NCBI GenBank assembly: GCA_034429475.1
Contig: DAOUGD010000250.1
Span: 21,527-85,526, forward strand
DNA from: Anaerolineae bacterium
Lineage (GTDB): Bacteria; Chloroflexota; Anaerolineae; B4-G1; SLSP01
Direction: 5' to 3'
Length of the DNA stretch: 64,000 bases
Part shown: positions 14,523 through 51,217 of the stretch, piece after piece
Layout: each line of letters begins with the position of its first letter
Numbering within the stretch: the stretch's first letter is position 1
Notes under the pieces: model-generated
Databases searched by the model: none
Seen by the model: the letters and a program-made list of their open reading frames with translations, nothing else
Told to the model about the DNA's origin: nothing
Position numbers and translations under genes: made by a program

Positions 14523-16493
14523 ATGAAAAGGCTTCTGATGGGCTTAGTGCTATTGGCGTTGAGTTGGCCGGCGGTCGTATCCGCCGACCCGGCGCCGCCC
14601 ACTGTGGAGGGCGCGCAGGCCATCCTGGCCCCGCAGCTCAAGTGGGAGCGCGGCGGCTGCACCTCCTGGTGCGAGACCGGCTGGTATTCGTCGCCGGCGG
14701 TGGCGGATTTGGACGGCGACGGGACGCAGGAGGTCATCGCCGGCGCGTACACGATCTTCATCCTCAACGGCGAGGATGGGACGGAGCAGCGCCGCGTGGA
14801 CACGCCCGGCAGCCGCGTCTGGCCGGGCGTCGCCGTCGCCGACCTGGACAACGACGGCGACCTGGAAATCGTCACGGGGCAGGGCGACGGCTACCTCAAC
14901 GTGCTCAATCACGCGGGCGACGTCGTCTGGACGCGCCAGCCCGCCGGCAATGAATTGCGCGGGATGGGCGTGACCGACCTCGACGGCGACGGCACGCTGG
15001 AGATCGTCGTCACCTCCGCGCGCGGCAACCGGATCAACACGTGGGTCTACGAGCATGACGGGACGCTGCGCGGCGGCTGGCCGCAGCCCGCCAGCGAGGA
15101 CAGCGGCTACTCGTGGGGCGTGTACAACGCCAACGCGGCGCTGGGCGACCTCGACGGCGATGGAACCGGCGAGATCGTCGTCCCCTCGGACGTGCATTAC
15201 ATCTGCGCTTACGAGCCGAACGGGACGCCCATCCCCGCGAACGCGATGTACGGCGGCAAAGTCTGGGGCAAAGTGGGGATTTGGGAAAGTCTCGACATCG
15301 AGCTGCGCGGTTGGGGACGGTGCAATGGCGATCGCGCGGAAAGCTACCGCACGAACTTCGCCGACGGCCCGGCGGTGATCGCCGATGTGAACGGCGACCG
15401 GGTGATGGAGGTGGTGGTCACGGGCAACGTCTACGACTGCCATACCAACTATCCGCCCAGCCGTTACGTCGGCGTCTACATCTTCAACGCCGACCGCAGC
15501 CGCTTCAACGCCAGCGGTTACAATTGGGAGACGCTCCCGGTGGATACCGGCGCGCCGCTCGTCGAGAATTACAACGTCATCGAGAGCGCGCAATCGGACC
15601 CGGCGGTGGCCGATCTGGATGGCGACGGCCAGATGGAGATTTTGTTTTCCAGCTACGACGGGCGCGTCCACGCCCTCTGGCTCGACAAGACCGAGCATCA
15701 CGCCTGGCCTTATGCGGTGCATACCGGCGGCGCGTACCGTTTCGCCTCCCCGCCCACCGTGGCCGACCTGGACGCCGACGGGCACGCAGAGGTCATCTTC
15801 GCGTCGTGGGTGCAGAAGGGGAGCAATCAGACCGGGAAGCTGCACATCCTGAGCTATCAGGGGACTGTCATCCACGAGATTGACCTGCCCGTAGCGGTCG
15901 GCGGCAACACCTGGAACGGCGGACTGGCCGCGCCCACCCTCGCTAACATTGACGCGGACGCGGACCTGGAAGTGGTGTTGAACACCGCCCATTCCGGCTT
16001 TGTGGCCTACGATCTGCCCGGCACGGCCACCGCGCGCGTGTTGTGGGGCACCGCGCGCGGCAGCTATTGGCGCGACGGTTGGCTGAAACCACGCGGATCG
16101 CTCGACGGCTCCTGGAAGCGGGTGCAGCACACGCCGCTCGATCCCGGCGCGCGGTTGACGTACACCTTGCACTTGGACAATCCCGGCCCTCTCCTGCCCA
16201 ATGTCCGCCTGACGGACACACTGCCCGGCGGGTTGCATTATTTGGGCAATCTGTGGGCTTCCTCCGGCAGTTACGGGGAGGCCGGCGGCGTCATCACCTG
16301 GACGGGGGCGGTGGGCAACGGCCTCCCGGTCACACTCACGTATAACATCGCCATCACTATGAGCATCGTGCAGCCGCTGGTCATCATCAACACCGCGCAG
16401 ATTAACGACGGCCAGGGCGTTCTCCTGGAACGCACGGCGGTCGCCATCCTCAACGGCCGCTCGGTCTATCTGCCGCTGGTGTTGCGCAATTGA
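14523..16493 (+). CDS. secreted FG-GAP/VCBS beta-propeller protein with a C-terminal DUF11 domain and a YLPLVLR tail
   Basis: Signal peptide MKRLLMGLVLLALSWPAVVSA. About 8 DxDGDG FG-GAP repeats. TDTLP DUF11 motif. Ends ...NGRSVYLPLVLRN. Confidence 0.8.
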   Translation: MKRLLMGLVLLALSWPAVVSADPAPPTVEGAQAILAPQLKWERGGCTSWCETGWYSSPAVADLDGDGTQEVIAGAYTIFILNGEDGTEQRRVDTPGSRVWPGVAVADLDNDGDLEIVTGQGDGYLNVLNHAGDVVWTRQPAGNELRGMGVTDLDGDGTLEIVVTSARGNRINTWVYEHDGTLRGGWPQPASEDSGYSWGVYNANAALGDLDGDGTGEIVVPSDVHYICAYEPNGTPIPANAMYGGKVWGKVGIWESLDIELRGWGRCNGDRAESYRTNFADGPAVIADVNGDRVMEVVVTGNVYDCHTNYPPSRYVGVYIFNADRSRFNASGYNWETLPVDTGAPLVENYNVIESAQSDPAVADLDGDGQMEILFSSYDGRVHALWLDKTEHHAWPYAVHTGGAYRFASPPTVADLDADGHAEVIFASWVQKGSNQTGKLHILSYQGTVIHEIDLPVAVGGNTWNGGLAAPTLANIDADADLEVVLNTAHSGFVAYDLPGTATARVLWGTARGSYWRDGWLKPRGSLDGSWKRVQHTPLDPGARLTYTLHLDNPGPLLPNVRLTDTLPGGLHYLGNLWASSGSYGEAGGVITWTGAVGNGLPVTLTYNIAITMSIVQPLVIINTAQINDGQGVLLERTAVAILNGRSVYLPLVLRN

Positions 16494-27079: not shown

Positions 27080-27688
27080 ATGACCGATTCCCCTACCCAT
27101 TTACCCGATGCATACCAGGAAGTCTTGTATTGGAAGTTGTCCCATCACAACAAGTTGTTGATCGCCTTGAACGTGGTCGGATTGGCGCTGATGTTAGGGG
27201 CGCTCAGCGCGTTCACGGCCTGGGCCAATGTTTGGCAGCCGGGCGGCCTTCATGACGACTTGAACATCGTACAGATAGTGCTTACCCTGATCAGCGTCGT
27301 GTTGGTGATGGTGCTGCACGAACTGGTGCATGGGATCGCGCTCAAAGCCTATGGCGCGCGCCCCAAGTACGGCGTGCTATGGCAACAGATGATGTTCTAC
27401 GCCACCGCGCCCAACCACGCCTTCCGCCGCAACGCCTACCTCGTCATCGCCCTGGCGCCGCTGGTGGGGATCAGCGTGGTGGGCTTTGTGTTGTTGATGC
27501 TGCCGCTGCCCGGCTGGCTGCTCTGGCTGATCGGGCTGTGCGCGGCGGTCAACGTTGGCGGCGCGGTGGGGGATATGTGGCTGGTGCGCGTCGCCCTGGG
27601 CTATCCGGCCCGCGCCTACATCGTGGACGAGCAGGACGGGGTGCGGGTGTTTATGCCGGAAGAGCCTGTTGCACAGATTCCATCGTGA
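27080..27688 (+). CDS. DUF3267-family membrane protein with an intact HExxH zincin motif
   Basis: LHELVHGIALKAYG, plus TM helices. Confidence 0.7.
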   Translation: MTDSPTHLPDAYQEVLYWKLSHHNKLLIALNVVGLALMLGALSAFTAWANVWQPGGLHDDLNIVQIVLTLISVVLVMVLHELVHGIALKAYGARPKYGVLWQQMMFYATAPNHAFRRNAYLVIALAPLVGISVVGFVLLMLPLPGWLLWLIGLCAAVNVGGAVGDMWLVRVALGYPARAYIVDEQDGVRVFMPEEPVAQIPS

Positions 27689-27735
27689 CCCATAGAAATC
27701 AAAAACCGTAATCCTTTTTCGTGCAAGGTGTACCA

Positions 27736-28335
27736 ATGTCATTCTTACCCGCAAATCTCCCGAACACCTATCAGGAAGCCCTGTACTGGAAATTGCCCCA
27801 TCGTCGCGAGTTGCCGCTTCTTTTGGATGTGGTGGGCTTCGCATTGATGATGGTGATGGGTGGAGTGTTTACAACCTGGGCTAGGTTATGGCATTTGCCC
27901 GATTCTTTTAGCGGTTTAACCTATGACCAACAGTTGTTATGTGTCCTAGTCGCGCTTTTTCTGATACCAGGCCTTCACAAGTTGATGCATGGTTTCGTAC
28001 TCAAGGCCTATGGTGTGCGCCCGAATTACCGTGTGTCATGGCAAGGACTGGTTGCCACCCACTCAAGCTATGCTTTCCATCGTAACCAATGCCTCGTGAT
28101 TGCGTTGGCGCCATTGGTGGGGATCAGCGTATTGGGTAGCTTACTACTGATGATGCCGTTACCTGACTGGCTTCTTTTTATAATCGTTGCTTCCACAGCA
28201 TACAACATCGGCCTACCAATGGGCATAAAGGATATATGGCTGATGTATATAATTATGAAATATCCGCCCCATGCTTATATTGTGCCTGAACAAGACGGCA
28301 TGCGTGTCTTCATGCCAGGAGAAGCACCCCAATGA
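27736..28335 (+). CDS. DUF3267-family paralog with a degenerate motif (HKLMH)
   Basis: Collinear with the 27080 protein, but HELVH is replaced by HKLMH. The start could be the GTG at 27721. Confidence 0.65.
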   Translation: MSFLPANLPNTYQEALYWKLPHRRELPLLLDVVGFALMMVMGGVFTTWARLWHLPDSFSGLTYDQQLLCVLVALFLIPGLHKLMHGFVLKAYGVRPNYRVSWQGLVATHSSYAFHRNQCLVIALAPLVGISVLGSLLLMMPLPDWLLFIIVASTAYNIGLPMGIKDIWLMYIIMKYPPHAYIVPEQDGMRVFMPGEAPQ

Positions 28336-29291
28336 TGCGCTGGGGAATGTGCTGTTTCCTCCTATGCGCACTGGGACTGTCCGCGTGCATCCCTGCCCTG
28401 CCCACACTGCCGCCGACGCCGGCCATACCATCCACGCCCACACCGCCTTCCCGCGACTTCGCCATTGTCGGCTACCTGCCCGACTACCGCACGCTCGATC
28501 CGGCGTGGGGGCGCTACGTCACCGACATCGTCTACTTTTCCGCCGGGCTGCGCGCCGATGGGGAACTGGACACGACTCGGCTAGACGCGCAAACCCTCGC
28601 CGCGTTGCGCGAGATGCGCTCCATCTATGGCACGCGCGTCTTTATCGCCATCGGCGGATGGGAGCGGTCGGGAGGCTTCGCCGCCGTCGCCGTTGACCCG
28701 GCGCTGCGCGCGTCCGTGGCGCGGACGCTCACCGCGTACTGCCTCGAAAACGGGCTGGACGGCGTGGACTTCGATTGGGAGTTCCCCGAAGGCGCCGCCG
28801 AGATCGCGGGCTACGTGGCGCTGCTCGCCGAAGTCCACACGGCGTTTGCGCCGCACGATCTGCGGGTCAGCGTGGCGCTGGCGGCGTGGCAAGACCTGGG
28901 GAGCGGGTTGTACGCGGCGGCGGATCGCATCCACATCATGGCCTACGATCACGATGGGCGCCATTCGACGTTTGAGCAGGCCGCCGAGGACATCCAGGTT
29001 TTCCTGAAGCGGGGCGCGCCGTCGGAGAAACTCCTGCTTGGCGTGCCGTTTTACGGACGCAACGTCCAAAACCCCGCCATCGCTCTGACCTACGCGGAGA
29101 TCGTGAGCACCCATCACCCCGCGCCGGACGTAGATGAGGCAGGCGGCGTCTACTTCAACGGCATTGCCACCATTCAAAAGAAGACCCGCTACGCGCAAGA
29201 GCAAGGGCTGTGCGGCGTGATGATCTGGGAACTGGGGCAGGATACGACGGATGACACGTCGTTGCTCCGGGCAATCTGGCAAAATCAATAA
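28332..29291 (+). CDS. glycoside hydrolase family 18 (chitinase-like) lipoprotein
   Basis: GH18 catalytic motif DGVDFDWEFP. Lipobox LSAC after the signal peptide. Confidence 0.8.
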   Translation: MMRWGMCCFLLCALGLSACIPALPTLPPTPAIPSTPTPPSRDFAIVGYLPDYRTLDPAWGRYVTDIVYFSAGLRADGELDTTRLDAQTLAALREMRSIYGTRVFIAIGGWERSGGFAAVAVDPALRASVARTLTAYCLENGLDGVDFDWEFPEGAAEIAGYVALLAEVHTAFAPHDLRVSVALAAWQDLGSGLYAAADRIHIMAYDHDGRHSTFEQAAEDIQVFLKRGAPSEKLLLGVPFYGRNVQNPAIALTYAEIVSTHHPAPDVDEAGGVYFNGIATIQKKTRYAQEQGLCGVMIWELGQDTTDDTSLLRAIWQNQ

Positions 29292-34252: not shown

Positions 34253-37200
34253 TATGAGAACTAAACGCTTTACCTTTACTCTGACCACGGGGCTGGGAAG
34301 TTTGCTGCTCCTGGTAACGCTGCTGCTCCTCTCTCCGACCCAGCCCGGTAGCGCCCACGCGGCAGACGTCACCCCTGGCGAGACGGCCCTGGGCGTGCGC
34401 GCTCCCCTCGATCCCGATCCGCCGTTTTCCCCAGCGCGGCTGCTGGGGCCGACCCAGTCGCCGCGGATTTTCGCCCGGTACTACGCGGACGGGCGTAATG
34501 ATGTGTTTGGATTCAACGCCGTTGCCAGCGGCACGGTTCTGATCACCATCACGCATCCTACCGAGGGGATCATTGCAACCGGCAGCACCATCGCCGGCAC
34601 ATGCAATGGCTGCAATCCCACCGATTACCAGCTTGATTTTCCCGATTGGACACTCACGGCTGGGGTCAGCGTGACGGTGGATGCCGGGCCGGGGATGGTC
34701 GAATCGGTCGAGGTGGTTTCCATCACCGGTGATCCCGACGCCGAGACGGACATCGTCATCGGCGACGCCCCGGCGGGAGGCCAGATGAATGCCTTCGTGC
34801 AGCGCCCCGGAAACCAGGCAGACATCAACGACGTGCAGGTGGACGTCAGCGGCGTCTACACACTGGATTTCGCCGCGGTGGGCTGGGATATTTTGCCCGG
34901 CGACGAGTTCCACGTGTACTACCACGCGCCGGGCGGCCACAACGTCGAATCGGTCTTCTGGCTCCCTGCGCCGGTGCTGAGCATCAACAAGTGGCACGTG
35001 AGCGGCTTTGCTCGACCGGGCGGCAAACTCGTGTACGGCATCGGTTACTGGAATGATGGCGGCATGGTCGCAACGGACGTCGTCATTACGGACACGCTGC
35101 CCGTCTCCACCACCTGGGCCGGCGATACGAGCGGCCTGACGCCCGACATCGGCGCGAATGGCGTCATCACCTGGCACATCGGCAGCCTCCCCGATGAGGG
35201 CATCTACGGCAACTGGGGTGTCTTCTTTGTCACGTTGGACGTCGCCGCCGACATGCCGACCGGGGAGGGGGTCATCCCCAGCAATTGCGCTACCATTTCG
35301 ACGAGCACGCCCGGCGATGCCAACCCCGACGACAACACGGCTTGCAGCGGCAGCGTGGATGTGTGGAACAGCGACGTGGGCCTTAATGTGGACAAATGGC
35401 CCAGCCCCGGCGATCCCACGCCGGGCCAGGAGTTCGATTACACCCTCCGCTGGTGCAGCGACTACGGGGCGAATTTCGGGCCGGTCTGGTTGACCGACAC
35501 GCTGCCCGTCTCGACGACGGTGGTCGGTTGGAGCACCGACGAGTGGTGGGGACAAATGCTGTGGACCGAAGTCGTCACCACCGGCGGACAGTTCGCGCTC
35601 TACGCGCCGGGTCTGCCGGGCGATTGGTGCGAACACATCACCCTGCGCCTGCGCGTTGACCCCGCTGCGCCGGAAGAGCTGCTGCTGAGCAACCACGTCA
35701 TTGTGACGACACCCGGCGACGCGCAGCCCGACAACAACGAACGCCTCAACGAAGATGCGCGCACGAGCAATCCGCGCCTGGATTTACACCTGGACAAAAG
35801 CCTGAACAGCGGGCGGCTCGTCCCCGGCGGATGGATCAATTACTTCTTGTGGTATGGCAATCAGGGGAACATGGCGGCGCCGGTCGTGATCACAGAGACC
35901 GTCCCCACCGGTCTCACCTTCGACTCTGCCTGGTGGGGCGGCGGGCAGCCGGGTGCGGACGAGCCGCTGCCCGCGCCGGTAGTGGTGGGCGATCAACTTG
36001 TGTGGGACCTGAGCGAGCTGCCGGTGAACGGGAGCCGTTGGTTCCACATCCAGATGGCTATCACGGATACCCTCCAGGCCGGCGACCTCATCACGAACTG
36101 CGCCGACCTCAGCATCAACGACGGGGAACGCACCCCGGAGGACAACCACAGGTGCTACACGGTGAAGCTCAACTCCCCCGGCCCCAACCTGCGCGTGACC
36201 AAAGAATCCTGGTGGAACGGCAACAGGCAGTTGGGCTACCGCATCAGCTTCTTCAACCTGGGGGATGAAACTGTCTCCAACGTCTGGATCACCGACACGT
36301 TGCCGACCGGCGTGGCCTGGGAAGGGTGGTATAACCTGAACTTTGATTCAAATCGCCTGGCGGAGGAGGCGCTCCCCGGCGACGTGCTGGCCTGGCGCTT
36401 CACGGAGCTGTATCCGGGCGACAACGGCAACCTGGAGTTCAATACGAACCTGGACGAACCCGGTGCGCCGGTACGCTGGTACACCAACACGGTGGAGATC
36501 ACCGTGCCGGACGGCGACGTCAACCCCGCCGACAACGCTGGTGAGACCGTGGACTTCAGCGGCGGCGAGGTGGAATGGGTGGACGTGGACGTCTACCGCA
36601 CCCGCATCTGGGGCTGCGCGCCGCAAGGCCCTGTTACTGTCACCACGGCGGCGGCAGAAGTGATCTTCGGCAATGACTGGAACGAGAATAACTTCCCCGA
36701 TACCTTCGACCCCGGCGACGTCGTCACTGTGACGGCCGGCGCGGGACGGTATCCGGTGGTCATTACCATTCCCGATCCCTTCACCGGGCAAATTGACTCC
36801 GTCGCCGACACGGTTTGGGGGCAGATTGACGCGCTGGATCACGCACAGGTCGAGGTGGACTTGTGGAACATCGGTTCGCAATGGACGGAAACCGATGCCC
36901 AGGGCCATTACAGCGTCACTTACCCCGACATCCCGCACGGTGCGCAAGGCGACGTAGGATATTGGACCGAGATTGCTTACGCCAGCGTCGGCTTCCACCA
37001 CCGGCTGGTCAACCTGGACCTGACCGTCACCGTGGATTACAGCGACAATGGCGTAGACAGCACCTATGAACGCGGGCACACCGGCTGGGTCACTGTCACC
37101 AGCAACCTTACCACAGAAATCAAGGCGACCGTCGAGGTCACCACGGAACAGTGGCCCTCGTGGAACGGCGGCAGCGGCTTCTCGACCCATCATCACCCCT

Positions 37201-40200
37201 GGGCCCCGTCGCAGCCCGACATTCAACCGGGCGATTGGGTCTACGCCGTGTTGGACAACGGCTATAGCGCCGCCGTGCAGGTAGGAACCATCAACGCTGC
37301 GGTGGATGCGGACAACGATGTGGTATCCGGCGCCCTCGATGTGCCGTGGTTCTCCGAAGGCTTGCCGGTCAGGTGCGAAATTCACGAGGAAAATGCGCCG
37401 GGCATCGAAATTCAGAACGTCGATCCCCAGGGCGGCGCGTTCTTCTGCGACTTCGGCGGCATGTGGGACATTCAGCCCGGTCAGAACGTGGCGGTGCGCT
37501 ACGCCGAACCGGACGGCAACCAGGTGATGGCCCGCCCCGCCAATCCCGCGCCGCGCCTGCGCGTGGAAAAATGGCTGGAAAGCGGCAATCCCGGCGAGAA
37601 TAGCAATGCAACTTTCTACGTGCAATACCGTAACGAGGGCGACGACGCGGCCGAGAATGTCGTCATCACCGACACGCTGCAAGGGATGACCTACATCACC
37701 GACACCTCCGGCTTCACGCACACCGGCAGCGGCGACCAGATCGTCCTGGACTTGGGGACGGTCGCGCCGGGTGAGTGGATTTACTTCTACGTCTTTGCCG
37801 AGGTCACGGCGGGGGCGGGCGAGCGCGTCACCAACACCGTCCAGATCGCCACCAGCGATCCCTACGATCAGGGCGACCCGTCAGAGAAATGGCGCGAGTG
37901 GAGCGGCGACGTGCAGCCCAACGATACGACCCTTAACATCGGCAAGCAGTCGTGGACCGGCGACCCTGCGGCCGGCTACGCCATGATCTTCCAACTCAGC
38001 TCGTGCAACAACGGCGGCACGGGCAGCCTGGCGGTAACGATCACCGATACGCTGCACCCCTCCATGACGCTCCAAACCTGGTGGAGCGACAATCCCGGAT
38101 GGCGCGAAGTCAGCCGTGGCGCGCAAGAACTGGTTCTCGCCAAACCCACGCTGCCGGGCTGGCGTTGCGAGAACGTCTATGTCCGCGCTACGGTAGATGC
38201 GGAGGCCGAGTCGGGGATGTTCATCTCCAACACAGCCACAATCTACGCGGCCAACGATCTCAGCACCGGCGACGATGAAGCCGGGTGGGGCGGCCACGTC
38301 GCCGCGCCGCGTCGCAATCTGCTGGTTGACAAGTATTGGAACTGGGGGCAACTGACCCCCGGCGGCGAATTGCGCTACAACCTCAACTACAACAACACCG
38401 GCAACGTCCCGGTGGGCGCGTTCCGCATCACCGACACGCTGCCGGTGAGCACGACCTTCGTCAGCGCGTGGCAGGATAATCACCCCTTCACGCCGACTCT
38501 CATTGATGACGGTATGGTGGTGTGGGAGTTTGCCGGGCTGGATAACGGCTACGCTAACGGGTTCGAGGTAATCCTGAGGGTGGATGCTGACGCTATCCCC
38601 GGTACGCTGCTGGTCAACACCGCCGAGATTTCCTGTCTGCCGGGCGAAGAGACTTGCGACGACAACGTCAGAAGTTGGACCGAGACACTCCTCAACCACG
38701 GCCCGAACCTGCGCGTGACCAAGTGGGGCGACTGGCACGGCGACCGGCCGGGGCACGCCCGGTATGAATTCCATGTGGAGAACGTGGGGGACGTTGCTGT
38801 CGCGCAGGCTGTCATCACGGATACCTACCCCATGGTAATGACATTGGAAGGGGGGATTGACGTAGATTGGGGCCGCGTGGCGGATTATACGGAGAATGCT
38901 GCGGAACACTGGCTCCAACTCACGCTTAACGATGTAGGCCCCGGCTACCGGCTGGATATCCGTTTCAATACCACGATGGAGGAACCGGTGGCCGAGGGAC
39001 TGATCCTCACCAACACGGTTGCTGTCGCGCCGGTCGCGGGCGATACCAACCCCGCCGACGACAGTACGGATTACGTCCTCACCACCGGCCCCGATCTCTA
39101 CGTCGAGAAGACGCTGGTCGGCGGCGCGTTGCTGCCCGGCGAACTGGTCACCTTCAGCCTGCGCTTCGGCAACGACCAGCCGGGTCACACCTGGTGGTGG
39201 AATATGGAGGGTAACACGCGGCTCACGGACATTCTGCCGGCGGGCCTGACGTACGTTTCCGCGCACCTGCGTTACTGCGGCGGCTCTGAGTGGTGCGCGC
39301 GTCCCCCTGATGTGCGACTCGATCCGATCCAGGTGTGGTGGTTTGATCCCCTCAACGCCGGCGCGTGGAATGAGCTTTACCTGACCGCCCGCATCACGGA
39401 CACAGCTACCGGGCGGGAGACTTTCACCAACACGGCTCAAATTGCCAGCAACCAACCTGCCGACGATACCGACCCCGACTCCACCAACAACTACGCGACG
39501 CTCACGCTGCCCATTGACCTGCCGTACTTTGAGGTCAGCAAGGACTACGAGAGTACAACCGTCGCCGGAACGCCCATCACCTACACCCTGACGGTGACGA
39601 ACAGCGGCAATCGCGTGGGCACAGGCGTCATCCTCAGCGACACCATTCCACAGGGCTTGGGAAACCCCGGCGGCGGGACGCTTGAGTTTGGCGCGGCTCG
39701 CTGGCTTTTCGCCATGATCGGCGTGGACGAGACAGCGACGGCGGAATTGACCGGCCTCCTGCCCTGCGCCGGCAGCGTCGTCAACGCTGACTACCGCGTC
39801 GTCACCAGCGACCAGGGCGTGGGCAGCGCCGTGGGCGCGCCGGTCGTCCTGAACGTTCTCGCCCCCACCCTCGTTGCCGACCTGGAGCAGAGCGCCGCCA
39901 GCGCCGTGGTCAGCGCGACGTTGTCTTTCACCGGCAGCGCCGCCACGAATGGCCCGGCGGTCGCGGCGTGGGCCTGGGACTTCGGCGACGACAGCGCGCC
40001 GGCCATGACGCCCAACGCCGTCCACACCTACGTCACCGACGGCGTCTTCCCTGTCACCCTCACCGTCACCGACACGTGCGGCTACACCGCGACGGCCACC
40101 AGCGCGGTCACGGTCACGCCGCCAGCGCTCGTGGCGAGCTTCATCCAGAGCGCGGCGCAGGTCAGGCCGGGTGACACGGTCACGTTCACCAGCACCAGCA

Positions 40201-40433
40201 CAACCGATGCGCCGCCTATCGTCGCGTGGGCCTGGGACTTCAGCGACGACGCTACGTTGAAATTGGGGGCGATCGTGACGCATACCTATCTCACGGAGGG
40301 GACTTTCACCGTTACCCTGACGGTCAGCGATAGCCTGGGCTACCACGCTGTCGCGGCCTCGGTCGTCACGGTCAGTCAGGATCAGGTCTTCGTCTACCTG
40401 CCGCTGGTGTTGCGGGATTATCCGCCGCAATAA
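34253..40433 (+). CDS. giant secreted cell-surface protein: signal peptide, about 10 DUF11 (TDTLP) repeat domains, two PKD domains and a YLPLVLR C-terminal tail
   Basis: RBS AAGGAGGA 7 nt upstream of the ATG at 34253. Signal peptide MRTKRFTFTLTTGLGSLLLLVTLLLLSPTQPGSAHA. Repeated [IV]TDTLP motifs. WAWDFGDDS appears twice, the PKD signature. Ends ...VFVYLPLVLRDYPPQ. Confidence 0.85.
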
Positions 40434-42932: not shown

Positions 42933-44744
42933 TCAAGGCGCGGCGCGCAACACCAGCGGCAGGTACAAGGGATAGAGCCGCTCGACGATGCGCACGGTGA
43001 GCGGCACGACGAATGGGCTTTGCAGCACCGGCGGCGCGGTAGTCAACGTAATAGCGCCGGTGTAAATGCCGACGGGGAGGCCGCGCGGGTCAACCGTAAC
43101 CCTGAACGCGCTCAGTTGCATGGAGAACGACTCGTACCACACACTGATGGTGGGGGCGGCGCTGAACGTGATCCCCTGCGTGGCCGTGACCAGGCTCCAA
43201 TCGAACGGGTAGTCGCCGACGTTTTCCACAATCACAGTCGTGGCGGCCGGGTGAGTGTCCGAGACGGCCATCATCCATCCCAGGGTGGCGGGTCTTACGC
43301 TCATCCCCCAACGGCCGATGACGTTGAGAGTCAGCGGAATCGTGAGGGGATTGCCGGGCATACAATCTGCCGCGGCCGTCACGGTGACGACGCCGGTGTA
43401 CGTCCCGGTCAGCAAGTCGCGCGCGTCCACCACAATCTGGAAGCTCTCCCCGGCAACTCCCCCGGTCACGGTGACGCTGAACGGCAGTCCCTGCGCCGCC
43501 GTACCGAGAGTCCACGTGAAGGGGCGCTCGCCGGTGTTCTCCACCGTGACCGTCTCAGTGAAGAGCGCCCGATCCCGCAGGTGGACGTTCCACTCAAAGG
43601 TGATGGGGGTCACGCGCATCCCCTGCACATACCACGGACAGGGGCGCTTGGGCATCTCTTGCAAACCCGTATACGCCAGACGCGGGCTGCCATCGGGCTT
43701 CAGCACCGAAAACCACCGGAGTGGATCACATGGCGCCATCCATGCACTCGGCAGGGTCGCAAAGTCCAGGTTGGAGACCAGCATCACCTGCATCCAGGGC
43801 CAGTGGGCGTCCGCGTAAGCGAAGGCGCGGGTGAGGTAGGTACTCTGGCTGATGGCGCTGCCCTGCTGCCACGCGAATCCCCCACTGTCCCACTCCGGGT
43901 CACATTCCACGCCCTCTTCGTCGGAATCCAGCAGCCAGCCGAACTCCGTCGCCCAGACCGGCTTGTCGCCATCGCCGTGCGCCGCCATGACCGCATAAAT
44001 ATCCTCGGCGCGCCGGAAATTGTTGACGCCCCAGCCATAGGCTTTGTCTTCCGGCGGGCCGCCAAAGCCGTAGTTGTGGAGGCTGATGGCATCGAAGTAG
44101 CCGTGCAGTCCCGCGTCGTACATGGCCTCGAGGTAGGTCACGTCGTTGATCGCGTGGACGCTGTCCCCGCCGGTGGGCGCAAGGCCGCCGGCAACGACGA
44201 TCACGGCCGGATCGCCGGCCTTCGCGCCGACGTAGGCCCGTGTAACCATTTCCGTGTAACGCACGGCATCCAGGGGTTGGCCGGCCCACTGAAAATCAAG
44301 GTTGGGTTCGTTCCACACCTCAAGGGCGACCCGGTAGCCGTTGCCGCAGGCCGCGCGCTGCTGCCCCACGTACTCCGCCAGCGCCTGGAAGAACGCCTGC
44401 CACCCCGCCATCTCGCTATCCTGGATGGGCTGCCAGTTATCAGAGGCCCGCTCAACGCGCAGCACCAGGTTGAGTTGGTTATTGCACGCCTCGTCCAACC
44501 GCCATTTCACGGTATCCCAGTTGTAGACACCGTCGCGGTCGGGATCAACATCATTCCAGCGAGCAAAATATTTGAACCAGTCGAAGCCCGCGTCGCTCAC
44601 CGCGCTCATGTGAGCTGGGTCGGCAGGATAGCCGAGCATCATCCCATAGCCGAGGTGCGGCCCCGTCTCCTGAGCGCGCGCAGGGATAACCCACCCCAGC
44701 CAGCCGACCACGGCCAAACACAGCGCAACCCCAAGCTTACGCAT
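42933..44744 (-). CDS. secreted clan GH-A (GH5-like) glycoside hydrolase with C-terminal Ig-like domains and a YLPLVLR tail
   Basis: Signal peptide. Acid/base motif LEVWNEPN and nucleophile motif ATEFGW. Ends ...RLYPLYLPLVLRAAP. Confidence 0.8.
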   Translation of the reverse strand: MRKLGVALCLAVVGWLGWVIPARAQETGPHLGYGMMLGYPADPAHMSAVSDAGFDWFKYFARWNDVDPDRDGVYNWDTVKWRLDEACNNQLNLVLRVERASDNWQPIQDSEMAGWQAFFQALAEYVGQQRAACGNGYRVALEVWNEPNLDFQWAGQPLDAVRYTEMVTRAYVGAKAGDPAVIVVAGGLAPTGGDSVHAINDVTYLEAMYDAGLHGYFDAISLHNYGFGGPPEDKAYGWGVNNFRRAEDIYAVMAAHGDGDKPVWATEFGWLLDSDEEGVECDPEWDSGGFAWQQGSAISQSTYLTRAFAYADAHWPWMQVMLVSNLDFATLPSAWMAPCDPLRWFSVLKPDGSPRLAYTGLQEMPKRPCPWYVQGMRVTPITFEWNVHLRDRALFTETVTVENTGERPFTWTLGTAAQGLPFSVTVTGGVAGESFQIVVDARDLLTGTYTGVVTVTAAADCMPGNPLTIPLTLNVIGRWGMSVRPATLGWMMAVSDTHPAATTVIVENVGDYPFDWSLVTATQGITFSAAPTISVWYESFSMQLSAFRVTVDPRGLPVGIYTGAITLTTAPPVLQSPFVVPLTVRIVERLYPLYLPLVLRAAP

Positions 44745-44906: not shown

Positions 44907-46181
44907 CTAGTCGTGGTAGGCGCGCAGCATAAGGGGAAGGTAGATCGTGCGGAAAATGACCATATTCTCAAATTCCGCCGTGCTCCCATAAACATCAGGC
45001 CCCGGCGCTGCAATCTCTGCCGCATTGTGCAAAATACGTATTGGCATACCCTGCGCCGTGACCGTGATCACAGCCATCCCGGTTTCGTTGGGAGCGATGG
45101 TGGGGATTTCCCACACAACCCGTGTGTTGCTGAGGAGTGTGGGGGGCGTCGGCACAGTTCCCACCACCGTCACATCGGCGGGCAGGGTGTCGGTCAGCCG
45201 GACCGAAGTGGCGACGTGATTTCCGATGTTTTGATAGGTGAGGGTGTAAACCATGGGTTCGTTGATGTAAGTCTGCGCCGGCGCGCCGGTCTTGGTCAGG
45301 TATAAGATTGCTCCTTCCGAGACGACCTGCGTGGCAAACAACTCGGACGTGATGGGCAACTCATCGGCGGTCGCCATAGCCGTGTTGGTAATCACCCCAA
45401 TCGTAGTCGGCGACGTCACCACGAGCGTCGCCATCCACGTCTCCCCTACCTCCAACGTTCCCACCGTCCACCGCAGTAACGGCAGCGTCACCTCCGCCGG
45501 CGCCGGGGTCGCCGATTGGTAAATCACGTCGCCCGGCAGAAGGTCCAAGACTGTAATGTTCCGAACCGGAACTTCACCGGTATTTTCGCACTGCAATTGA
45601 TATACCAATTCCCCCTCTTTCAGCACGACGGGATAACCGGTTTTGGTGAGAACCAGTTCACGCACGGGGGGCGCGACGATCGTGTGGACTGAAGCGTGCG
45701 TCGGCGTGACCCCGTCGGCGGTGACGATAGCGTGGTTGTACAGCTCGTCAAACCCTTCTTGCACTATGCCATACACGACGACTTCCACCGGTGTTGTCCC
45801 CGGCCCAATCGAAGGCGCATTGAAGGTCAAGACGCCGTCGGCGTAGCTAGCGTAGGAGGGGTTGGTCGAGATGAGCTGAATCCCGGCCGGCAGGAAATCG
45901 TAGAGACGCACGTTGAACGCCTGCGACCCGGCATTGGTGTTGGCGTAGCGCAACGTGTAAATCACCGTCTGGCCGGGGCGTGGGGAAGTCAGGTTGGCTT
46001 CCTTAGAAATCGTCAAAGCCGGATTGCCTATCGGGCTTTCAAAAGTCAACAGCGCCGGCTTCAAGGACGATGCCTGGAGTGTTTCCGTTGGCAGCCCCCA
46101 CACCAACGCCAGCCACAATCCAACCAAACCACCCAAGATCAACCAGGTTCTCAAAATACGGTTTCTTTTTTCAGATAACAT
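44907..46181 (-). CDS. secreted DUF11-repeat protein with a YLPLMLR tail
   Basis: N-terminal TM helix/signal peptide. Three DUF11-like repeats with the motifs LYDFLP, VLDLLPGD and LTDTLPAD. Ends ...FRTIYLPLMLRAYHD. Confidence 0.75.
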   Translation of the reverse strand: MLSEKRNRILRTWLILGGLVGLWLALVWGLPTETLQASSLKPALLTFESPIGNPALTISKEANLTSPRPGQTVIYTLRYANTNAGSQAFNVRLYDFLPAGIQLISTNPSYASYADGVLTFNAPSIGPGTTPVEVVVYGIVQEGFDELYNHAIVTADGVTPTHASVHTIVAPPVRELVLTKTGYPVVLKEGELVYQLQCENTGEVPVRNITVLDLLPGDVIYQSATPAPAEVTLPLLRWTVGTLEVGETWMATLVVTSPTTIGVITNTAMATADELPITSELFATQVVSEGAILYLTKTGAPAQTYINEPMVYTLTYQNIGNHVATSVRLTDTLPADVTVVGTVPTPPTLLSNTRVVWEIPTIAPNETGMAVITVTAQGMPIRILHNAAEIAAPGPDVYGSTAEFENMVIFRTIYLPLMLRAYHD

Positions 46182-46276: not shown

Positions 46277-46660
46277 TTAAACTGCGGGTGCCGCGGCGGC
46301 CGGAGCAGCCTCTTCAGCCGGCGCTTCTCCTTTGTGCGTCATCTTGGCCTTGAGCTGCGCCTGCTTCTCCTCGACCATCGTCTTGGTCTGTTCTTGCAAC
46401 TCCTTCGCGCGCTCCTGAAGCTGCTTGGTAGCCTCATCCATCTTGGTGCGCGCCTCAGAAAGTAACTGCTCCGCCTTCGCGCGGGCTTCGTCGGCCTTCT
46501 GCGTGGCCTGCTCGCTCAGCTCCACACTCTTGCGGCGAATCTGCTCACGGGTCTCCCCACCGGACTGTGGCGCGAAAAGCATCCCCACCGCCGCACCGAT
46601 CAGCCCGCCGACGACGAACCCCAACAAAAAGACCCCGAATTCATTCTCCTGATTGGACAT
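46277..46660 (-). CDS. YtxH-like membrane-associated protein with a coiled coil
   Basis: N-terminal hydrophobic GVFLLGFVVGGLIGAAVGMLFAP, then a charged helical region. ATG at 46660 with GGAGG upstream. Confidence 0.6.
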   Translation of the reverse strand: MSNQENEFGVFLLGFVVGGLIGAAVGMLFAPQSGGETREQIRRKSVELSEQATQKADEARAKAEQLLSEARTKMDEATKQLQERAKELQEQTKTMVEEKQAQLKAKMTHKGEAPAEEAAPAAAAPAV

Positions 46661-47207
46661 CCTCTTTGCCTCCTGTTTGCTTTGGACGTGAATGTGGGCG
46701 AGTGTTCTTGACGACTGCGAGCAAATCCCCGCTGACGCGCTGCGCCGCCGCCGCAAATCCCGCCAACCTGATAAAAGGTGACACCATATTGTGGCTGACA
46801 AATTCCGTCGTCCCCCGCACGGTGGACGCCGTGTCATTGACCGATCGCAACAAGGGTTGCACCTCGTCGCGCAATACCTGAATCAACATTTGAACCTGGA
46901 AGATCAGCAAAATCGCCGCCAACCCGATCACAAACGTTTCCACCGCCACGAAGACGATGGCAATATCGCGGATGACGGTGGTGGCCGATGGGAAGCTCGC
47001 CATCAAGGTCACGGCGGCGATCAACAAGAGCAGGAACACAATGCCTGCCACAATAATGATCAATTGCGTGCGCTTCGCCGCCTTTTCCGCAGCGACCTGC
47101 GCTTCCAGCGTAGCGGCATCTTCAATGGGGGTACTACTGGCCGGGGCCGGCGCTTCTAGCGCGGCAGTTGGTTTTTCCGGGCGAACGGTTGATGTTTCAG
47201 GCGGCAT
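46641..47207 (-). CDS. DUF948-family membrane protein
   Basis: TM helices followed by a helical region, overlapping the downstream YtxH-like gene. Confidence 0.55.
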   Translation of the reverse strand: MPPETSTVRPEKPTAALEAPAPASSTPIEDAATLEAQVAAEKAAKRTQLIIIVAGIVFLLLLIAAVTLMASFPSATTVIRDIAIVFVAVETFVIGLAAILLIFQVQMLIQVLRDEVQPLLRSVNDTASTVRGTTEFVSHNMVSPFIRLAGFAAAAQRVSGDLLAVVKNTRPHSRPKQTGGKEDVQSGE

Positions 47208-47399
47208 TGAGTCCTCCTTCTCCGGGGCAAGCCCTGAATGAACACAAATTCATTATACCATGCGGATAAAAAAGAAACAAGGCAAAGCGAGAAAGCGAAC
47301 AAGCGAATAAGCGAGTGGACGAGATGTGCTGGGTGGTGGTGCGCTGCAATCCCCCATTTGGCCTCCGTGCAAAATTGCCTTATACTCAGGCCTATCCAT

Positions 47400-48551
47400 A
47401 TGGCATTGATTGAGGTGATCTCCGACAACACCGGAACTTTCCTAGCAAGCCGAAGAAGTCGCTGGTTTTTCCCCCTTCTCGTGCTGTGCTGGTTCGGATT
47501 TGCGCTGCGCGTTTACCGTCTGGACGCGCAGTCTTTTTGGTTCGATGAGTGGTTGAGCTTCGATCTGGCCCGCGCACCGTTGCTCTATGCGCCCGCAACG
47601 ATTGATCGTCCCCCGCTATACTACGTACTGCTGCACCTCTGGATCAGGATCGCCGGCGTCTATCCTTTCACGTTTCGCTTCTTTTCGGCCTGCTGCGGTG
47701 CGTTGACCGTGCCATTGTTTTACCGGTTGGGGCGGAAGACGCTGGGACGGCAGGCGGGTATGTGGGCTATGACGCTGGCGGCGCTTTCCCCGTTTTGCGT
47801 CTACTACGCGCAGGAAGCCCGCACTTACGCGCTGACGTTGACCCTGATCCTGGCCTCGAATTGGGCGCTGCTCGCATGGCTGGACACAGGCCGGAAGCGC
47901 ACCCTGGCGCTGTACATGGCAGTGACGCTGGCGTGCCTGTACACTCACTACGTCGCGTTGCTGATCCCGGCGGCGCAAGGCCTCTTCGTCTGGCTGAGCC
48001 GCCCCGGTAAGCAGCGCCATCTTCAATGGCTGGCTGCGCTGGCCGCGATTGGCGCAGCGTTTGCGCCCTGGCCGCTGCACGTCTGGACGCACATGGCGGA
48101 ACTGGCCCACCCGGCCACGGATATGCTCATCTACACGCCGATGCCGCCGCTCCAACGCGCCGCGCACATCTTGTGGACGACGCTGGTGGAGTTCAGCGTG
48201 GGGCGCACGGTGAGCGGCCCGGCGGCCATCGGCGGCGCGCTGCTCTTCCTGTTCCTGGTTATTTTGGGGCTGCGCCCGGTAGACGCGACGCCCCAGGCGC
48301 AGCGGTTTCTCTCTTGCACGTTGGCGCTGCCTGTGGCGGTGCTGTTGCTTTTGCCGCGCACGGCGGTATATTTTTCGCCCAAATACCTAAGCGTGGCGCT
48401 GCCCGGATTCTACTTGCTGGCCGTTGCCGGCTTGCAACGACTCCGCCGCGACGCGCCCTGGCTTTTTGTTCTCTGCCTCGCGCTCGTATTGCTCGCGTGT
48501 GCGTGGAGCTTGGGAGATTGGTTTTTGCATAGTCACGACAAAGTGGCGTAA
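47400..48551 (+). CDS. GT-C-fold glycosyltransferase (GT39/ArnT/PMT-like)
   Basis: Multi-TM protein with an N-terminal FWFDEW loop motif typical of GT39/ArnT-like enzymes. Confidence 0.65.
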   Translation: MALIEVISDNTGTFLASRRSRWFFPLLVLCWFGFALRVYRLDAQSFWFDEWLSFDLARAPLLYAPATIDRPPLYYVLLHLWIRIAGVYPFTFRFFSACCGALTVPLFYRLGRKTLGRQAGMWAMTLAALSPFCVYYAQEARTYALTLTLILASNWALLAWLDTGRKRTLALYMAVTLACLYTHYVALLIPAAQGLFVWLSRPGKQRHLQWLAALAAIGAAFAPWPLHVWTHMAELAHPATDMLIYTPMPPLQRAAHILWTTLVEFSVGRTVSGPAAIGGALLFLFLVILGLRPVDATPQAQRFLSCTLALPVAVLLLLPRTAVYFSPKYLSVALPGFYLLAVAGLQRLRRDAPWLFVLCLALVLLACAWSLGDWFLHSHDKVA

Positions 48552-48634
48552 AGTAGGCGCGACATCCCTGTCGCGGGAAGGCGGACACGCGGAAAGGATT
48601 CCGCGCCTACAAGGTCTATTCCGAGAGAGGTTCA

Positions 48635-50257
48635 ATGAAAAACCACAAACAACGAGACATTCTGCTCGCGCTGGTGTTGACACTGGGTGTCGGGCTGGTG
48701 CTTTACTTCCTTGCCCGCTCGGAAGAAACGCCACGAATCGTCAGTGAACCACTGCACGCGAGTTGGTGGGATAGTTTCAACACGGATGATCGGATTGCCG
48801 GGACGGCAGGGGCGCCGTTTAATCCTGATGGCATCCAGCTTTCGCACATCCACGATTTGCCAGATGCGTTTATCTCAAGGGGCGTTCTGACTTCAACCCT
48901 CATTCAACCTCACGCGCTGATGGTGACGCACACCGTTTTCAGCGGGTTGCCGACACTGGCATGGGGCAACGATGGCGCGCTCTACGGGGTGAGTACCAGA
49001 TCGCTTGGCATCATACGCTATGATCCACAAACCCTGGAATCTACGACATTCATCAGCCTCCCTCTCGCAAGTCCATGTTTGCATTGCGAATCGCAGGTCA
49101 TCGCTGCTGATTCAGTGGGACGAGTGGTTGCTGGAATTGGAGGCGCTTCTGGAACGCGTGATCCCTTTGCTATGTTGATGATTTATGATCCTGAACAGAA
49201 TACTGTCGTCACGACTACGATCCCAGTTTCAGAGGCCAACGTAATGAAAATCCTGGTCGGTGCGCCGGATGGTAGTCTCTACAGCAGTTTTGGAGACAGT
49301 TTTGGCTATTCTAACGGGATATGGAAAGATCATTTGTTCAAATACGATCCCACCCTCAGCGCAGTCATGGACCTGAGTATGCCCTTTACCAACACCTATT
49401 GGAGCATTCAGGCATTGGCCGTAGCGCCGGATGGCAAAGTCTATGGCGGCGGCGGGCCGATATTTAGGGAAAGAGGCTCGTACTATTACAGAAAAATGCC
49501 TTCTTCGGATTCTAAACTATTTGTCTACGACCCGGCAACACAAGCCTTCAGCTATCCCGGCCCGGACAAAGTCTCTAGCAATCGGATACGCACGCTACTA
49601 GCCGGACCGGATGGTAGGATATACATCGGGATGGAAATAGGAGAAGAAAAAGGGTTCCACATCTACGATCCCGCCACGAATCAATGGACTTACTGGGGTA
49701 TAGGCGAGAAGGGAGACGGCAAATGGACATATTATTGGCATCAAGAAGAGAGCAGTGCCGATGTCATTGCCCTGACTTGGGGGGCCGACGACCTTGTCTA
49801 CGGGAGCACCGCGATGCATGTATTCACCTATGACCCGCATCATCCTGACCGGCCTCCGGTCATCATCGGCAGACTCAACAGAGCAGGCTTTAAACAACTA
49901 CTTGCCGGCCCGGATGGTGTCATTTATGGCACCATCGGCTCGTATGACTCTTTCGACTCCACGCCCCCAGAACTGATCGCCTTCCGCACCGACTGCGCCG
50001 CCGGGCGCATCGGCGCGTGGGAGCGCGTGACGTGGGAAGCCGACACGCCGCGCGGCACGGACATCAACATAGACGTGCTGGACGAGAAGGGCACTGTCCT
50101 CATGCGGGACATCCGCAACGGCGGCTCGCTGGCGAGCATTGACCCGCTGATTTATCCGAGCGTCCGCCTGCAAGCCACGCTAACCACCCGCAACCCGCAG
50201 GTGTCGCCCGTGCTCAAAAGCTGGCAGGTGGAATACACGTTTGAATGTCAGCAATGA
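48635..50257 (+). CDS. membrane-anchored hypothetical protein, probably beta-propeller-like
   Basis: N-terminal TM anchor. Repeated ~45-aa segments with YG/GPDG motifs. No family assigned. Confidence 0.5.
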   Translation: MKNHKQRDILLALVLTLGVGLVLYFLARSEETPRIVSEPLHASWWDSFNTDDRIAGTAGAPFNPDGIQLSHIHDLPDAFISRGVLTSTLIQPHALMVTHTVFSGLPTLAWGNDGALYGVSTRSLGIIRYDPQTLESTTFISLPLASPCLHCESQVIAADSVGRVVAGIGGASGTRDPFAMLMIYDPEQNTVVTTTIPVSEANVMKILVGAPDGSLYSSFGDSFGYSNGIWKDHLFKYDPTLSAVMDLSMPFTNTYWSIQALAVAPDGKVYGGGGPIFRERGSYYYRKMPSSDSKLFVYDPATQAFSYPGPDKVSSNRIRTLLAGPDGRIYIGMEIGEEKGFHIYDPATNQWTYWGIGEKGDGKWTYYWHQEESSADVIALTWGADDLVYGSTAMHVFTYDPHHPDRPPVIIGRLNRAGFKQLLAGPDGVIYGTIGSYDSFDSTPPELIAFRTDCAAGRIGAWERVTWEADTPRGTDINIDVLDEKGTVLMRDIRNGGSLASIDPLIYPSVRLQATLTTRNPQVSPVLKSWQVEYTFECQQ

Positions 50258-50361: not shown

Positions 50362-50703
50362 TTACGCCACCGCAAACCCCGTCAACGGGCGGACATCGGG
50401 CGGCTGGAAGGCCAGCACAATATCCTCTTTGGGGATGCCGGCTGCCAGCAGGTCCGGTGTGATGCCGTGTTCCAGCCAATCCTCTTCAATCCACAACTTG
50501 TCATCCCGCAACCGAACATACACCGTTGTGCCGCGAATTCGCCGCTGTTGGTCCCAGCCGGTCGAAACCAACATATAGTGGTCATGCTCCGTGTCGGCGA
50601 CCACTTCGGTTTCCTTGCCCGGCCTAGCAGAACGGTTAATCACGTCGGCGTATTGCGTAAGAATTTGCCGGATGATGTGCCGATAATGAGTTAATTTGTC
50701 CAT
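50362..50703 (-). CDS. xisI: XisI-family protein
   Basis: Characteristic XisI sequence, e.g. YRHIIRQILTQYA and HYMLVSTGWD. Confidence 0.8.
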   Translation of the reverse strand: MDKLTHYRHIIRQILTQYADVINRSARPGKETEVVADTEHDHYMLVSTGWDQQRRIRGTTVYVRLRDDKLWIEEDWLEHGITPDLLAAGIPKEDIVLAFQPPDVRPLTGFAVA

Positions 50704-51107
50704 ACAACCACCTCCTCTTGCGCCAGATTAACCACAATTAAGGCCATCTTATTCCGTTGCACCAGCAATTGAATAGCTTTGCGGGCGAAGACGTTTTCGT
50801 AGACGGGTAGACTAACCGCCAGATATAAATGGCGATCTGGTTCAACGGCTTCCAACAGGCTTTGATAGAGCACATATTGCCCCAAGGCTTCTTCCATTGC
50901 GTGGATGACCGAAGGCGCTATAAAACTTTTGATTTCCACCGCAATTTTCTGCCCCGCTCGTTCTGCTGCGATCACCCGTTCCGCGCCCAGGTCAACAAAA
51001 ACCGTCGTATCTTCATACTCCAACGTGTAAGGATCGTGGGTGATCGTCCACCCGTCTTTGATCAAAGCATTTCTGACAGCCGTATGAATGATGTCTTTTG
51101 CGGGCAT
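50691..51107 (-). CDS. xisH: XisH-family protein (PD-(D/E)xK nuclease-like)
   Basis: XisH signature MPAKDIIHTAVRNALIKDGWTIT. Overlaps xisI. Confidence 0.8.
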   Translation of the reverse strand: MPAKDIIHTAVRNALIKDGWTITHDPYTLEYEDTTVFVDLGAERVIAAERAGQKIAVEIKSFIAPSVIHAMEEALGQYVLYQSLLEAVEPDRHLYLAVSLPVYENVFARKAIQLLVQRNKMALIVVNLAQEEVVVWTN

Positions 51108-51190: not shown

Positions 51191-51217
51191 CAGCGCGATT
51201 TGGAAATCGCGGCTACA
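51191..51217. repeat. short hairpin cgcgatttggaaatcgcggctaca (family I), 3' of uvrA
   Basis: A near-identical copy lies at 55297..55322. Confidence 0.6.

Follow-up and report, generated by a model that had tools for sequence, protein, structure and literature searches.

C-terminal protein-sorting signals have been described through seven attributes (Haft, bioRxiv 10.1101/2023.06.07.544157): a position near the C-terminus, many copies per genome, at least three near-invariant residues, a hydrophobic segment of transmembrane (TM) length, a terminal cluster of two to five basic residues, signal peptides at the N-terminus of the cargo proteins and a heterogeneous cargo. Tripartite signals of this kind include LPXTG/sortase, PEP-CTERM/exosortase, PGF-CTERM/archaeosortase, GlyGly-CTERM/rhombosortase and MYXO-CTERM/myxosortase. 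Two very short NCBIfam models, NF050076.1 “sort_motif_YLP” (11 positions, cutoff 15) and NF053834.1 “ultrashort_CTERM” (10 positions, cutoff 10), share the description “YLP-box putative sorting motif-containing protein”, the word “putative” reflecting an inferred function: our literature search retrieved no paper on the YLP-box motif in bacteria, and no published mechanism or sorting enzyme. We analysed here a stretch of 64,000 nucleotides from an Anaerolineae bacterium (contig DAOUGD010000250.1, positions 21,527 to 85,526 of the forward strand; hereafter the window) and in particular the YLPLVLR tail of an exported 656-aa protein (protein 1) encoded at 14523-16493 (+ strand, stop included). 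This tail is a YLP-box, already curated and named and therefore not new, and protein 1 is a member of the set of proteins that carry it.

The envelope of filamentous Chloroflexota consists of a cytoplasmic membrane, of a shared outer layer and of an S-layer-like protein layer whose composition is unknown, and their genomes lack genes for BAM (beta-barrel assembly machinery) and for lipopolysaccharide (LPS). For the question of how these bacteria place proteins on the layers of their envelope, the YLP-box provides a ready list of envelope cargo, as it marks a large and varied set of surface proteins composed of adhesin-like propellers, CLIPPER stalk proteins, glycosidases and proteases. We consider it probable that the YLP-box is an ultrashort portable C-terminal motif, added in filamentous Chloroflexota (Anaerolineae, Thermoflexia, Chloroflexia) to the end of many Sec-exported surface proteins that are otherwise unrelated, and that these proteins are kept on the envelope after export.

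The C-terminal tail of the propeller protein

The last 35-41 residues of tail proteins were scanned against NCBIfam at E-values up to 10, and both YLP-box models matched. With its last 35 residues, protein 1 reached 16.2 bits for NF050076 and 13.9 bits for NF053834, passing both cutoffs, and among 33 tails from other Chloroflexota genomes 30 matched NF050076 and 29 matched NF053834. Three further proteins of the window bear such a tail: protein 2 obtained 13.5 bits for NF050076 (below the cutoff) and 11.9 bits for NF053834 (above it), while protein 3 (7.9 bits) and protein 4 (12.3 bits) stayed below the NF050076 cutoff and gave no match to NF053834. No CTERM model besides these two matched the tails, even at E-values up to 10. 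Full-length NCBIfam and Pfam scans of the window proteins placed no model on the tail, the YLP-box models being probably missed through the speed filters of HMMER. Routine annotation will consequently under-call the YLP-box, since full-length scans miss the models and proteins 3 and 4 remain below the cutoffs despite obvious boxes. Protein 1 differs in nothing from the curated definition, being a signal-peptide protein of Chloroflexota with a C-terminal box present in multiple copies. The tag that the original prediction had named from the letters of this locus is thus the YLP-box of NCBIfam, and the four window genes can be labelled as encoding YLP-box surface proteins.

The gene of protein 1, delimited from the list of open reading frames (ORFs), has an AGGAG Shine-Dalgarno sequence 7 nt ahead of its ATG. 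It is also called on NCBI contig CAYXJK010000002.1, and 120 orthologues of 61-72% identity were retrieved. The N-terminus, MKRLLMGLVLLALSWPAVVSA|DP, displays on inspection a basic n-region, a hydrophobic core and a cleavage-like VSA|D site, and resembles a probable Sec signal peptide covering residues 1-21 (14523-14585, + strand); the AlphaFold2 (AF2) model, built on 88 orthologues with a mean predicted local distance difference test (pLDDT) of 81.2, shows a helix at residues 2-13 and pLDDT values below 50 for residues 15-30. An FG-GAP/VCBS beta-propeller follows at about residues 38-508 (14634-16046, +; Pfam FG-GAP_3 1.7e-32, FG-GAP 3.9e-22; AF2 strands 38-508), and a comparison of the model with the PDB using Foldseek places integrin alpha chains at the top (7nxd_A, E 8e-13), which bears out the earlier description of an integrin-like propeller. 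The propeller is followed by a single immunoglobulin (Ig)-like domain at residues 531-643 (16113-16451, +; AF2 strands 531-643), assigned to DUF11, now renamed CLIPPER, a CnaA-like stalk domain of fibrillar adhesins. Both models exceed their cutoff, PF01345 at residues 532-629 with 33.6 bits (E 5.2e-8, cutoff 24.6) and TIGR01451 with 26.6 bits (cutoff 24).

Beyond this domain, a 4-residue spacer (N644-S647, 16452-16463) leads to the YLP-box itself, V648-Y-L-P-L-V-L-R-N656 (16464-16490, +). The end of the protein reads NGRSVYLPLVLRN or, quoted at another length, AVAILNGRSVYLPLVLRN, with YLPLVLR encoded at 16467-16487, a single Asn (16488-16490) between the box and the end of the chain, and the stop codon at 16491-16493; the tail announced on a secreted propeller-DUF11 protein is therefore real, and its start had been placed at 16463, where the Ser codon ends, which is right within 2 nt.

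The tail is better conserved among the orthologues than the average of the protein. In the 119 aligned ends, Pro is present in all sequences (and Pro651 is invariant across the 88 orthologues of the AF2 alignment), preceded by Leu at position -1 (110/119), by Tyr at -2 (97/119, otherwise His in 10 and Phe in 8), by Val, Ile or Thr at -3 and by Gly at -6 (114/119). On the other side, position +1 is occupied by Leu (78), Val (25) or Ile (8), position +2 by Val (59) or Ile (39), and position +4 by a basic residue in 97 of the 119 sequences (57 Arg, 40 Lys). Position +3, which in YLPLVLR is the third Leu, is variable and shows no conservation. The chains stop 4-6 residues past the Pro. The consensus of these orthologues is [VIL]-Y-L-P-[LV]-[VI]-x-[RK]-x(0-2), and the conserved unit as a whole amounts to about nine residues, [VIL]-Y-L-P-[LV]-[VI]-x-[RK], followed by zero to seven residues. 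The same constraint is found in the family of protein 3, which is not related to the propeller: 77 of 120 homologues keep a YLP-like end, the most distant of them at about 31% identity, and all of the 79 aligned homologues share the Pro.

A six-frame scan of the window for YLPL[VM]LR returned exactly four strings, at 16467 (+), 40395 (+), 42945 (-) and 44922 (-), in agreement with the prediction of a fourth instance, all of them located 1-5 residues ahead of the stop codon of ORFs of 424 to about 2059 aa encoding exported proteins. No such string occurred in 200 mononucleotide shuffles and 200 codon-block shuffles, and the four copies are not due to chance. Protein 2 (gene 34254-40433, +) is a 2059-aa protein with seven DUF11 and two PKD domains whose box, VYLPLVLRDYPPQ at 40392-40433 (+), comes after the PKD domains. 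Protein 3 (gene 42933-44744, -) has 603 residues and a box LYLPLVLRAAP at 42933-42968 (-); Pfam finds no DUF11 in it, its AF2 model comprises a TIM-barrel glycosidase and two Ig-like domains, and some of its homologues are annotated as Cellulase (PF00150) or PslG-like. Protein 4 (gene 44907-46181, -), of 424 residues with three DUF11 domains, ends in a variant of the box, IYLPLMLRAYHD, at 44907-44945 (-). Three of the four tail proteins lie within 34-46 kb; the copy at 16467, together with those found in other Chloroflexota genomes, establishes that the tag is not confined to this cluster.

A repeat at the DNA level, such as a repetitive extragenic palindromic (REP) or terminator-like element at gene ends translated by accident, could account for the nearly identical 20-nt core, TA(C/T)CTGCCGCTGGTGTTGCG, shared by three of the four window copies. 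When the four copies were aligned with about 70 nt of flanking sequence, however, conservation was limited to the 21-nt coding core, the flanks being unrelated on both sides, and the fourth copy as well as those of other genomes use different synonymous codons, which indicates that selection acts on the peptide and not on the DNA. The tail boxes also stand in frame at the end of long ORFs. Being contradicted by both the flanks and the codon variation, a DNA repeat was rejected and can hardly be entertained.

Portability and distribution of the YLP-box

In the AF2 model of protein 1, the last DUF11 strand spans residues 634-643 and residues 644-656 form a coil, with pLDDT below 50 at 651-656, leaving only 13 residues past the last Ig strand. 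In that of protein 3, the last strand (578-587) is likewise followed by coil, with a mean pLDDT of 64 at 591-600 and of 49 at 601-603. The YLP-box is thus predicted, in two unrelated families, to be a free and unstructured peptide beyond the last folded domain.

The domains to which this peptide is appended were collected with Pfam (E-values up to 1e-5) on 30 tail proteins, four from the window and 26 from other Chloroflexota genomes. They belong to 47 families, with DUF11 in 7 proteins, Beta_helix in 5, Peptidase_C25 in 3 and PKD in 3, the others including CARDB, M28, GH123, Kelch and DUF5122, and three tails come straight after a choice-of-anchor Q domain. In an alignment of the tail proteins the YLPLVLR columns alone are conserved. 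A signal-peptide-like N-terminus (a basic stretch followed by a hydrophobic one, according to a hydrophobicity heuristic and not SignalP) is present in 19 of 21 complete tail proteins. These results bear on the view that the tail belongs to the DUF11/Ig fold, as its last strand or as an extension at the C-terminus, and is specific to this family. Three of the four window copies are indeed on DUF11 proteins, and the box begins only 3-6 residues past the last strand. Against this, it is a low-confidence coil in both modelled families, on which ground the last Ig-domain strand was rejected, and it also terminates proteins after PKD, beta-helix, choice-of-anchor Q and other domains, DUF11 being found in 7 of the 30. 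Such a structural origin is very improbable, and the condition set beforehand for abandoning a portable tag, namely that the tail proves part of a longer DUF11-specific domain, is contradicted by the coil in the two families; the independence from DUF11 is moreover directly visible in protein 3 and in the diversity of the 47 families.

For a broader census, one genome per species was scanned for TAYCTNCCNCTNGTNCTNCG, a query limited to exact YLPLVLR with CTN for Leu and CGN for Arg, and the taxonomy was taken from record titles, a match being considered C-terminal when at most 8 aa separate it from the stop. At least 119 stretches with at least 120 matches were obtained, and the following counts refer to the matches listed. 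The 44 matches in Chloroflexota records divide into 32 C-terminal in a long ORF, 10 internal and 2 in a short ORF or non-coding sequence. The 73 matches in other phyla comprise a single C-terminal one, 35 internal and 37 in short ORFs or non-coding sequence, and three untitled “bacterium” records contribute 1 C-terminal match and 2 internal ones, none being short or non-coding. The C-terminal tail is therefore essentially confined to Chloroflexota among these matches (Fisher test, C-terminal versus all other matches, Chloroflexota versus other phyla, p = 1e-17). The only C-terminal case among the matches listed for other phyla is on a 1878-bp contig of a “Nitratifractor” metagenome-assembled genome (CAYSQV010000232.1), which is probably mis-binned, given its 64% GC and the likeness of its protein (33-41% identity) to Chloroflexota tail proteins.

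According to the record titles, the tails belong to Anaerolineae/Anaerolineales, Thermoflexia/Thermoflexales and Chloroflexia. Several copies can be found per genome region, as illustrated by the four copies of the 64-kb window, and the tail proteins cluster, with three paralogues in a row at one locus (L013) and two at each of four others (L014, L015, L028, L118). The three tandem paralogues at L013:1-7489, each of about 1000 aa, end in YLPLVVRNGP, YLPLVLRTTP and YLPLVVRDRS, a local expansion of tail proteins.

Candidate roles of the YLP-box in the envelope

Compared with the seven attributes of sorting signals, five are found in the YLP-box, the basic cluster is partly present and the TM-length segment is absent. 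As in the tripartite signals, the motif is near-C-terminal, present in many copies per genome and composed of three near-invariant residues (Y, L, P) followed by a hydrophobic and then a basic part, and its cargo is heterogeneous and equipped with N-terminal signal peptides. It differs from them by a hydrophobic part of only 2-3 residues, which is not a TM helix, and by the presence of only 1-2 basic residues, one of them conserved (R/K, 97/119), which is weaker than the usual Arg cluster. With five of the seven attributes present and the basic cluster weak, we read the YLP-box as a post-export sorting or retention tag, a role attributed entirely by analogy. Lacking a TM segment, it cannot simply copy the mechanism of sortase or exosortase systems, and among putative sorting signals of this kind it is the shortest. 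A sortase LPXTG signal was in fact rejected, the sequence reading LPLVL-R-N-stop with no T-G, no TM segment and no match of an LPXTG-anchor model at E-values up to 10.

The relatives of the propeller give an indication of the place taken by the box. Only about 15 of the 150 best 50%-identity representatives have a YLP-like end. Two others end in the C-terminal domain (CTD) of the type IX secretion system (T9SS) (P0149, 42.6 bits; P0249, 36.8 bits), three in SLH domains (P0190 and P0245 with three, P0224 with two), one shows a weak Cu_amine_oxidN1 match at its end (P0192) and another, by eye, an LPVTG motif with a hydrophobic stretch and an RR tail (P0250). The YLP-box thus occupies the place where relatives in other phyla bear known surface-anchoring modules. 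The same FG-GAP propeller family is equipped in other lineages with a T9SS CTD, with SLH domains or with an LPVTG sortase signal, a clear “choice of anchor” series.

Since relatives bear a Por_Secre_tail at the same position, the box could be a functional analogue of the T9SS CTD, not an anchor, and serve for export across the filament's shared outer layer. With Peptidase_C25, M28, beta-helix, PKD, CARDB and FG-GAP, its cargo resembles in spectrum that of T9SS, and filamentous Chloroflexota do possess an extra outer layer. There is nevertheless no demonstration that this layer is a lipid barrier, and the phylum lacks BAM and LPS genes; secretion machinery is neither known nor was any seen, and nine residues are far below the length of every second-step secretion signal known. 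In diderm Bacteroidota the T9SS CTD folds into a beta-sandwich of about 75 residues, whereas the YLP-box is a 9-residue unstructured peptide, and a genuine T9SS CTD was rejected for protein 1, which shows no Por_Secre_tail or TIGR04183 match and has 13 residues past its last Ig strand. An export signal appears improbable.

The CAAX box of prenylated proteins, a substrate of the membrane proteases Rce1 and Ste24, offers an analogy for a signal that is ultrashort, very C-terminal and read without a TM segment. The YLP-box differs from it in that it lacks a Cys, that its distance from the terminus is not fixed at three residues and that it would act outside the cytoplasm. Rce1-like CPBP proteases are known among the sorting enzymes of CTERM signals (bioRxiv 10.1101/2023.06.07.544157). 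In the retention role proposed here, the cargo would be exported by Sec, a dedicated envelope factor would read the exposed peptide in extended form through its near-invariant Y-L-P core, and the protein would be retained on the multilayered envelope, either on the outer layer or on the S-layer-like layer. By analogy with other CTERM signals, this factor could be a sorting enzyme of the endopeptidase or transpeptidase type, the short hydrophobic stretch and the basic residue holding the C-terminus briefly at the membrane face. Enzymatic processing is the sub-mechanism that we tentatively prefer to docking, as every characterised precedent works in this way and as the box strongly prefers the terminus.

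Several observations weigh against a sorting and retention tag of this type. None of the complete tail proteins has a C-terminal hydrophobic stretch of TM length, a feature of every characterised CTERM signal, and the best 15-residue Kyte-Doolittle mean within the last 30 residues is at most 1.3 in 32 of 33 tails. A cognate enzyme or receptor was searched by comparing 265 genes all-against-all from 42 Chloroflexota loci and the window, and none emerged, no non-tail gene family recurring beside the tail proteins. The zero to seven residues past the basic residue do not imply a fixed-length C-terminal trimming, and no experimental or published evidence on the function of the YLP-box was found in the literature search. 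Moreover, YLPLVLR is internal in 10 of the 44 Chloroflexota matches listed (about a fifth), at domain boundaries and with folded domains after it, a situation less easily reconciled with a cleave-and-attach process than with a docking motif or with vestigial gene fusions, and one that the “CTERM” label of the curated models does not cover.

Leaving out two unrelated Limnocylindria-type proteins, eight Chloroflexota proteins with an internal box remain among the matches listed, and a Pro/Ser-rich linker usually follows the box. In six of them it stands at residue 504 of a Peptidase_C1 and lectin-like protein, followed by 221 aa (L027:3128-5320); at residue 78, between a signal peptide and GHL10 (L042:5549-6949); at residue 208, after a cohesin and before more than 577 aa (L070:3-2375); at residue 113, before PKD, CARDB and beta-helix domains (L018:1917-8000); at residue 551, before a beta-helix, in a protein whose relatives are ordinary tail proteins (L043:4541-7999); and at residue 1191 of a protein running from Amidase_3 to Big_13, followed by 161 aa (L055:3438-7511). 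These proteins may have arisen by gene fusion and retain a vestigial box, or may indicate that the motif works internally, and in three further cases with 26-62 trailing residues (L010, L062, L098) the stop codon may simply have been lost.

A non-covalent docking, in which the tail would bind, without cleavage and perhaps by beta-strand addition, to a receptor domain of the S-layer or of the outer layer, would be compatible with such internal boxes, as those placed in linkers at domain boundaries (L042, L070, L027) would still work. It would resemble the dockerin-cohesin interaction with a 9-residue ligand, and the variable number of residues past the box (0-7), its richness in beta-branched and aromatic residues and the exposed, flexible nature of the peptide speak in its favour. 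Docking would not, however, call for so strong a preference of the box for the very end of the protein (32 of the 42 long-ORF Chloroflexota matches listed), no candidate receptor was found, and all characterised short C-terminal sorting signals are enzyme-processed (bioRxiv 10.1101/2023.06.07.544157). We regard docking as a rather unlikely alternative to enzymatic processing. Considering these internal boxes, the YLP-box might be a linear docking or processing motif that is not strictly C-terminal, and the handle of an undiscovered TM-free sorting or anchoring pathway, specific to filamentous Chloroflexota, that populates the shared outer layer or the S-layer; this larger proposal is possible, although we hold it with some doubt. 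If it is true, the partner of the YLP-box would reveal how the non-classical envelopes of Chloroflexota are built.

Genes neighbouring the tail proteins in the window

Two paralogous DUF3267 genes (“putative zincin peptidase”) stand in tandem at 27080-27688 and 27721-28335 (+; Pfam 1.4e-24 and 6.5e-15), beside a GH18 gene at 28332-29291. They were considered as a source of a possible tail-processing enzyme and rejected, no such gene recurring beside tail proteins in other loci. Directly upstream of protein 4, the segment 46277-47207 (-) contains two small genes of 127 and 188 aa with no Pfam family, the 188-aa product having an obvious hydrophobic stretch. The tail cluster is flanked at 47400-48551 by a gene for a PMT_2-type GT-C glycosyltransferase with weak Agl23/STT3-like matches, then at 48635-50257 by a gene for a 540-aa protein without any Pfam family, and the genes at 46277-50257 may represent a context of surface-protein glycosylation. 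The PMT_2 glycosyltransferase was discarded as a partner of the tail for the same lack of recurrence beside tail proteins in other loci.

Two other features of the window are unrelated to the tail. A XisH/XisI pair at about 50362-51107 (-) adjoins a uvrA gene (51213-54125, -), and a second UvrA-like ORF, judged by its C-terminal sequence only, occupies 61765-63972 and runs off the end of the window.

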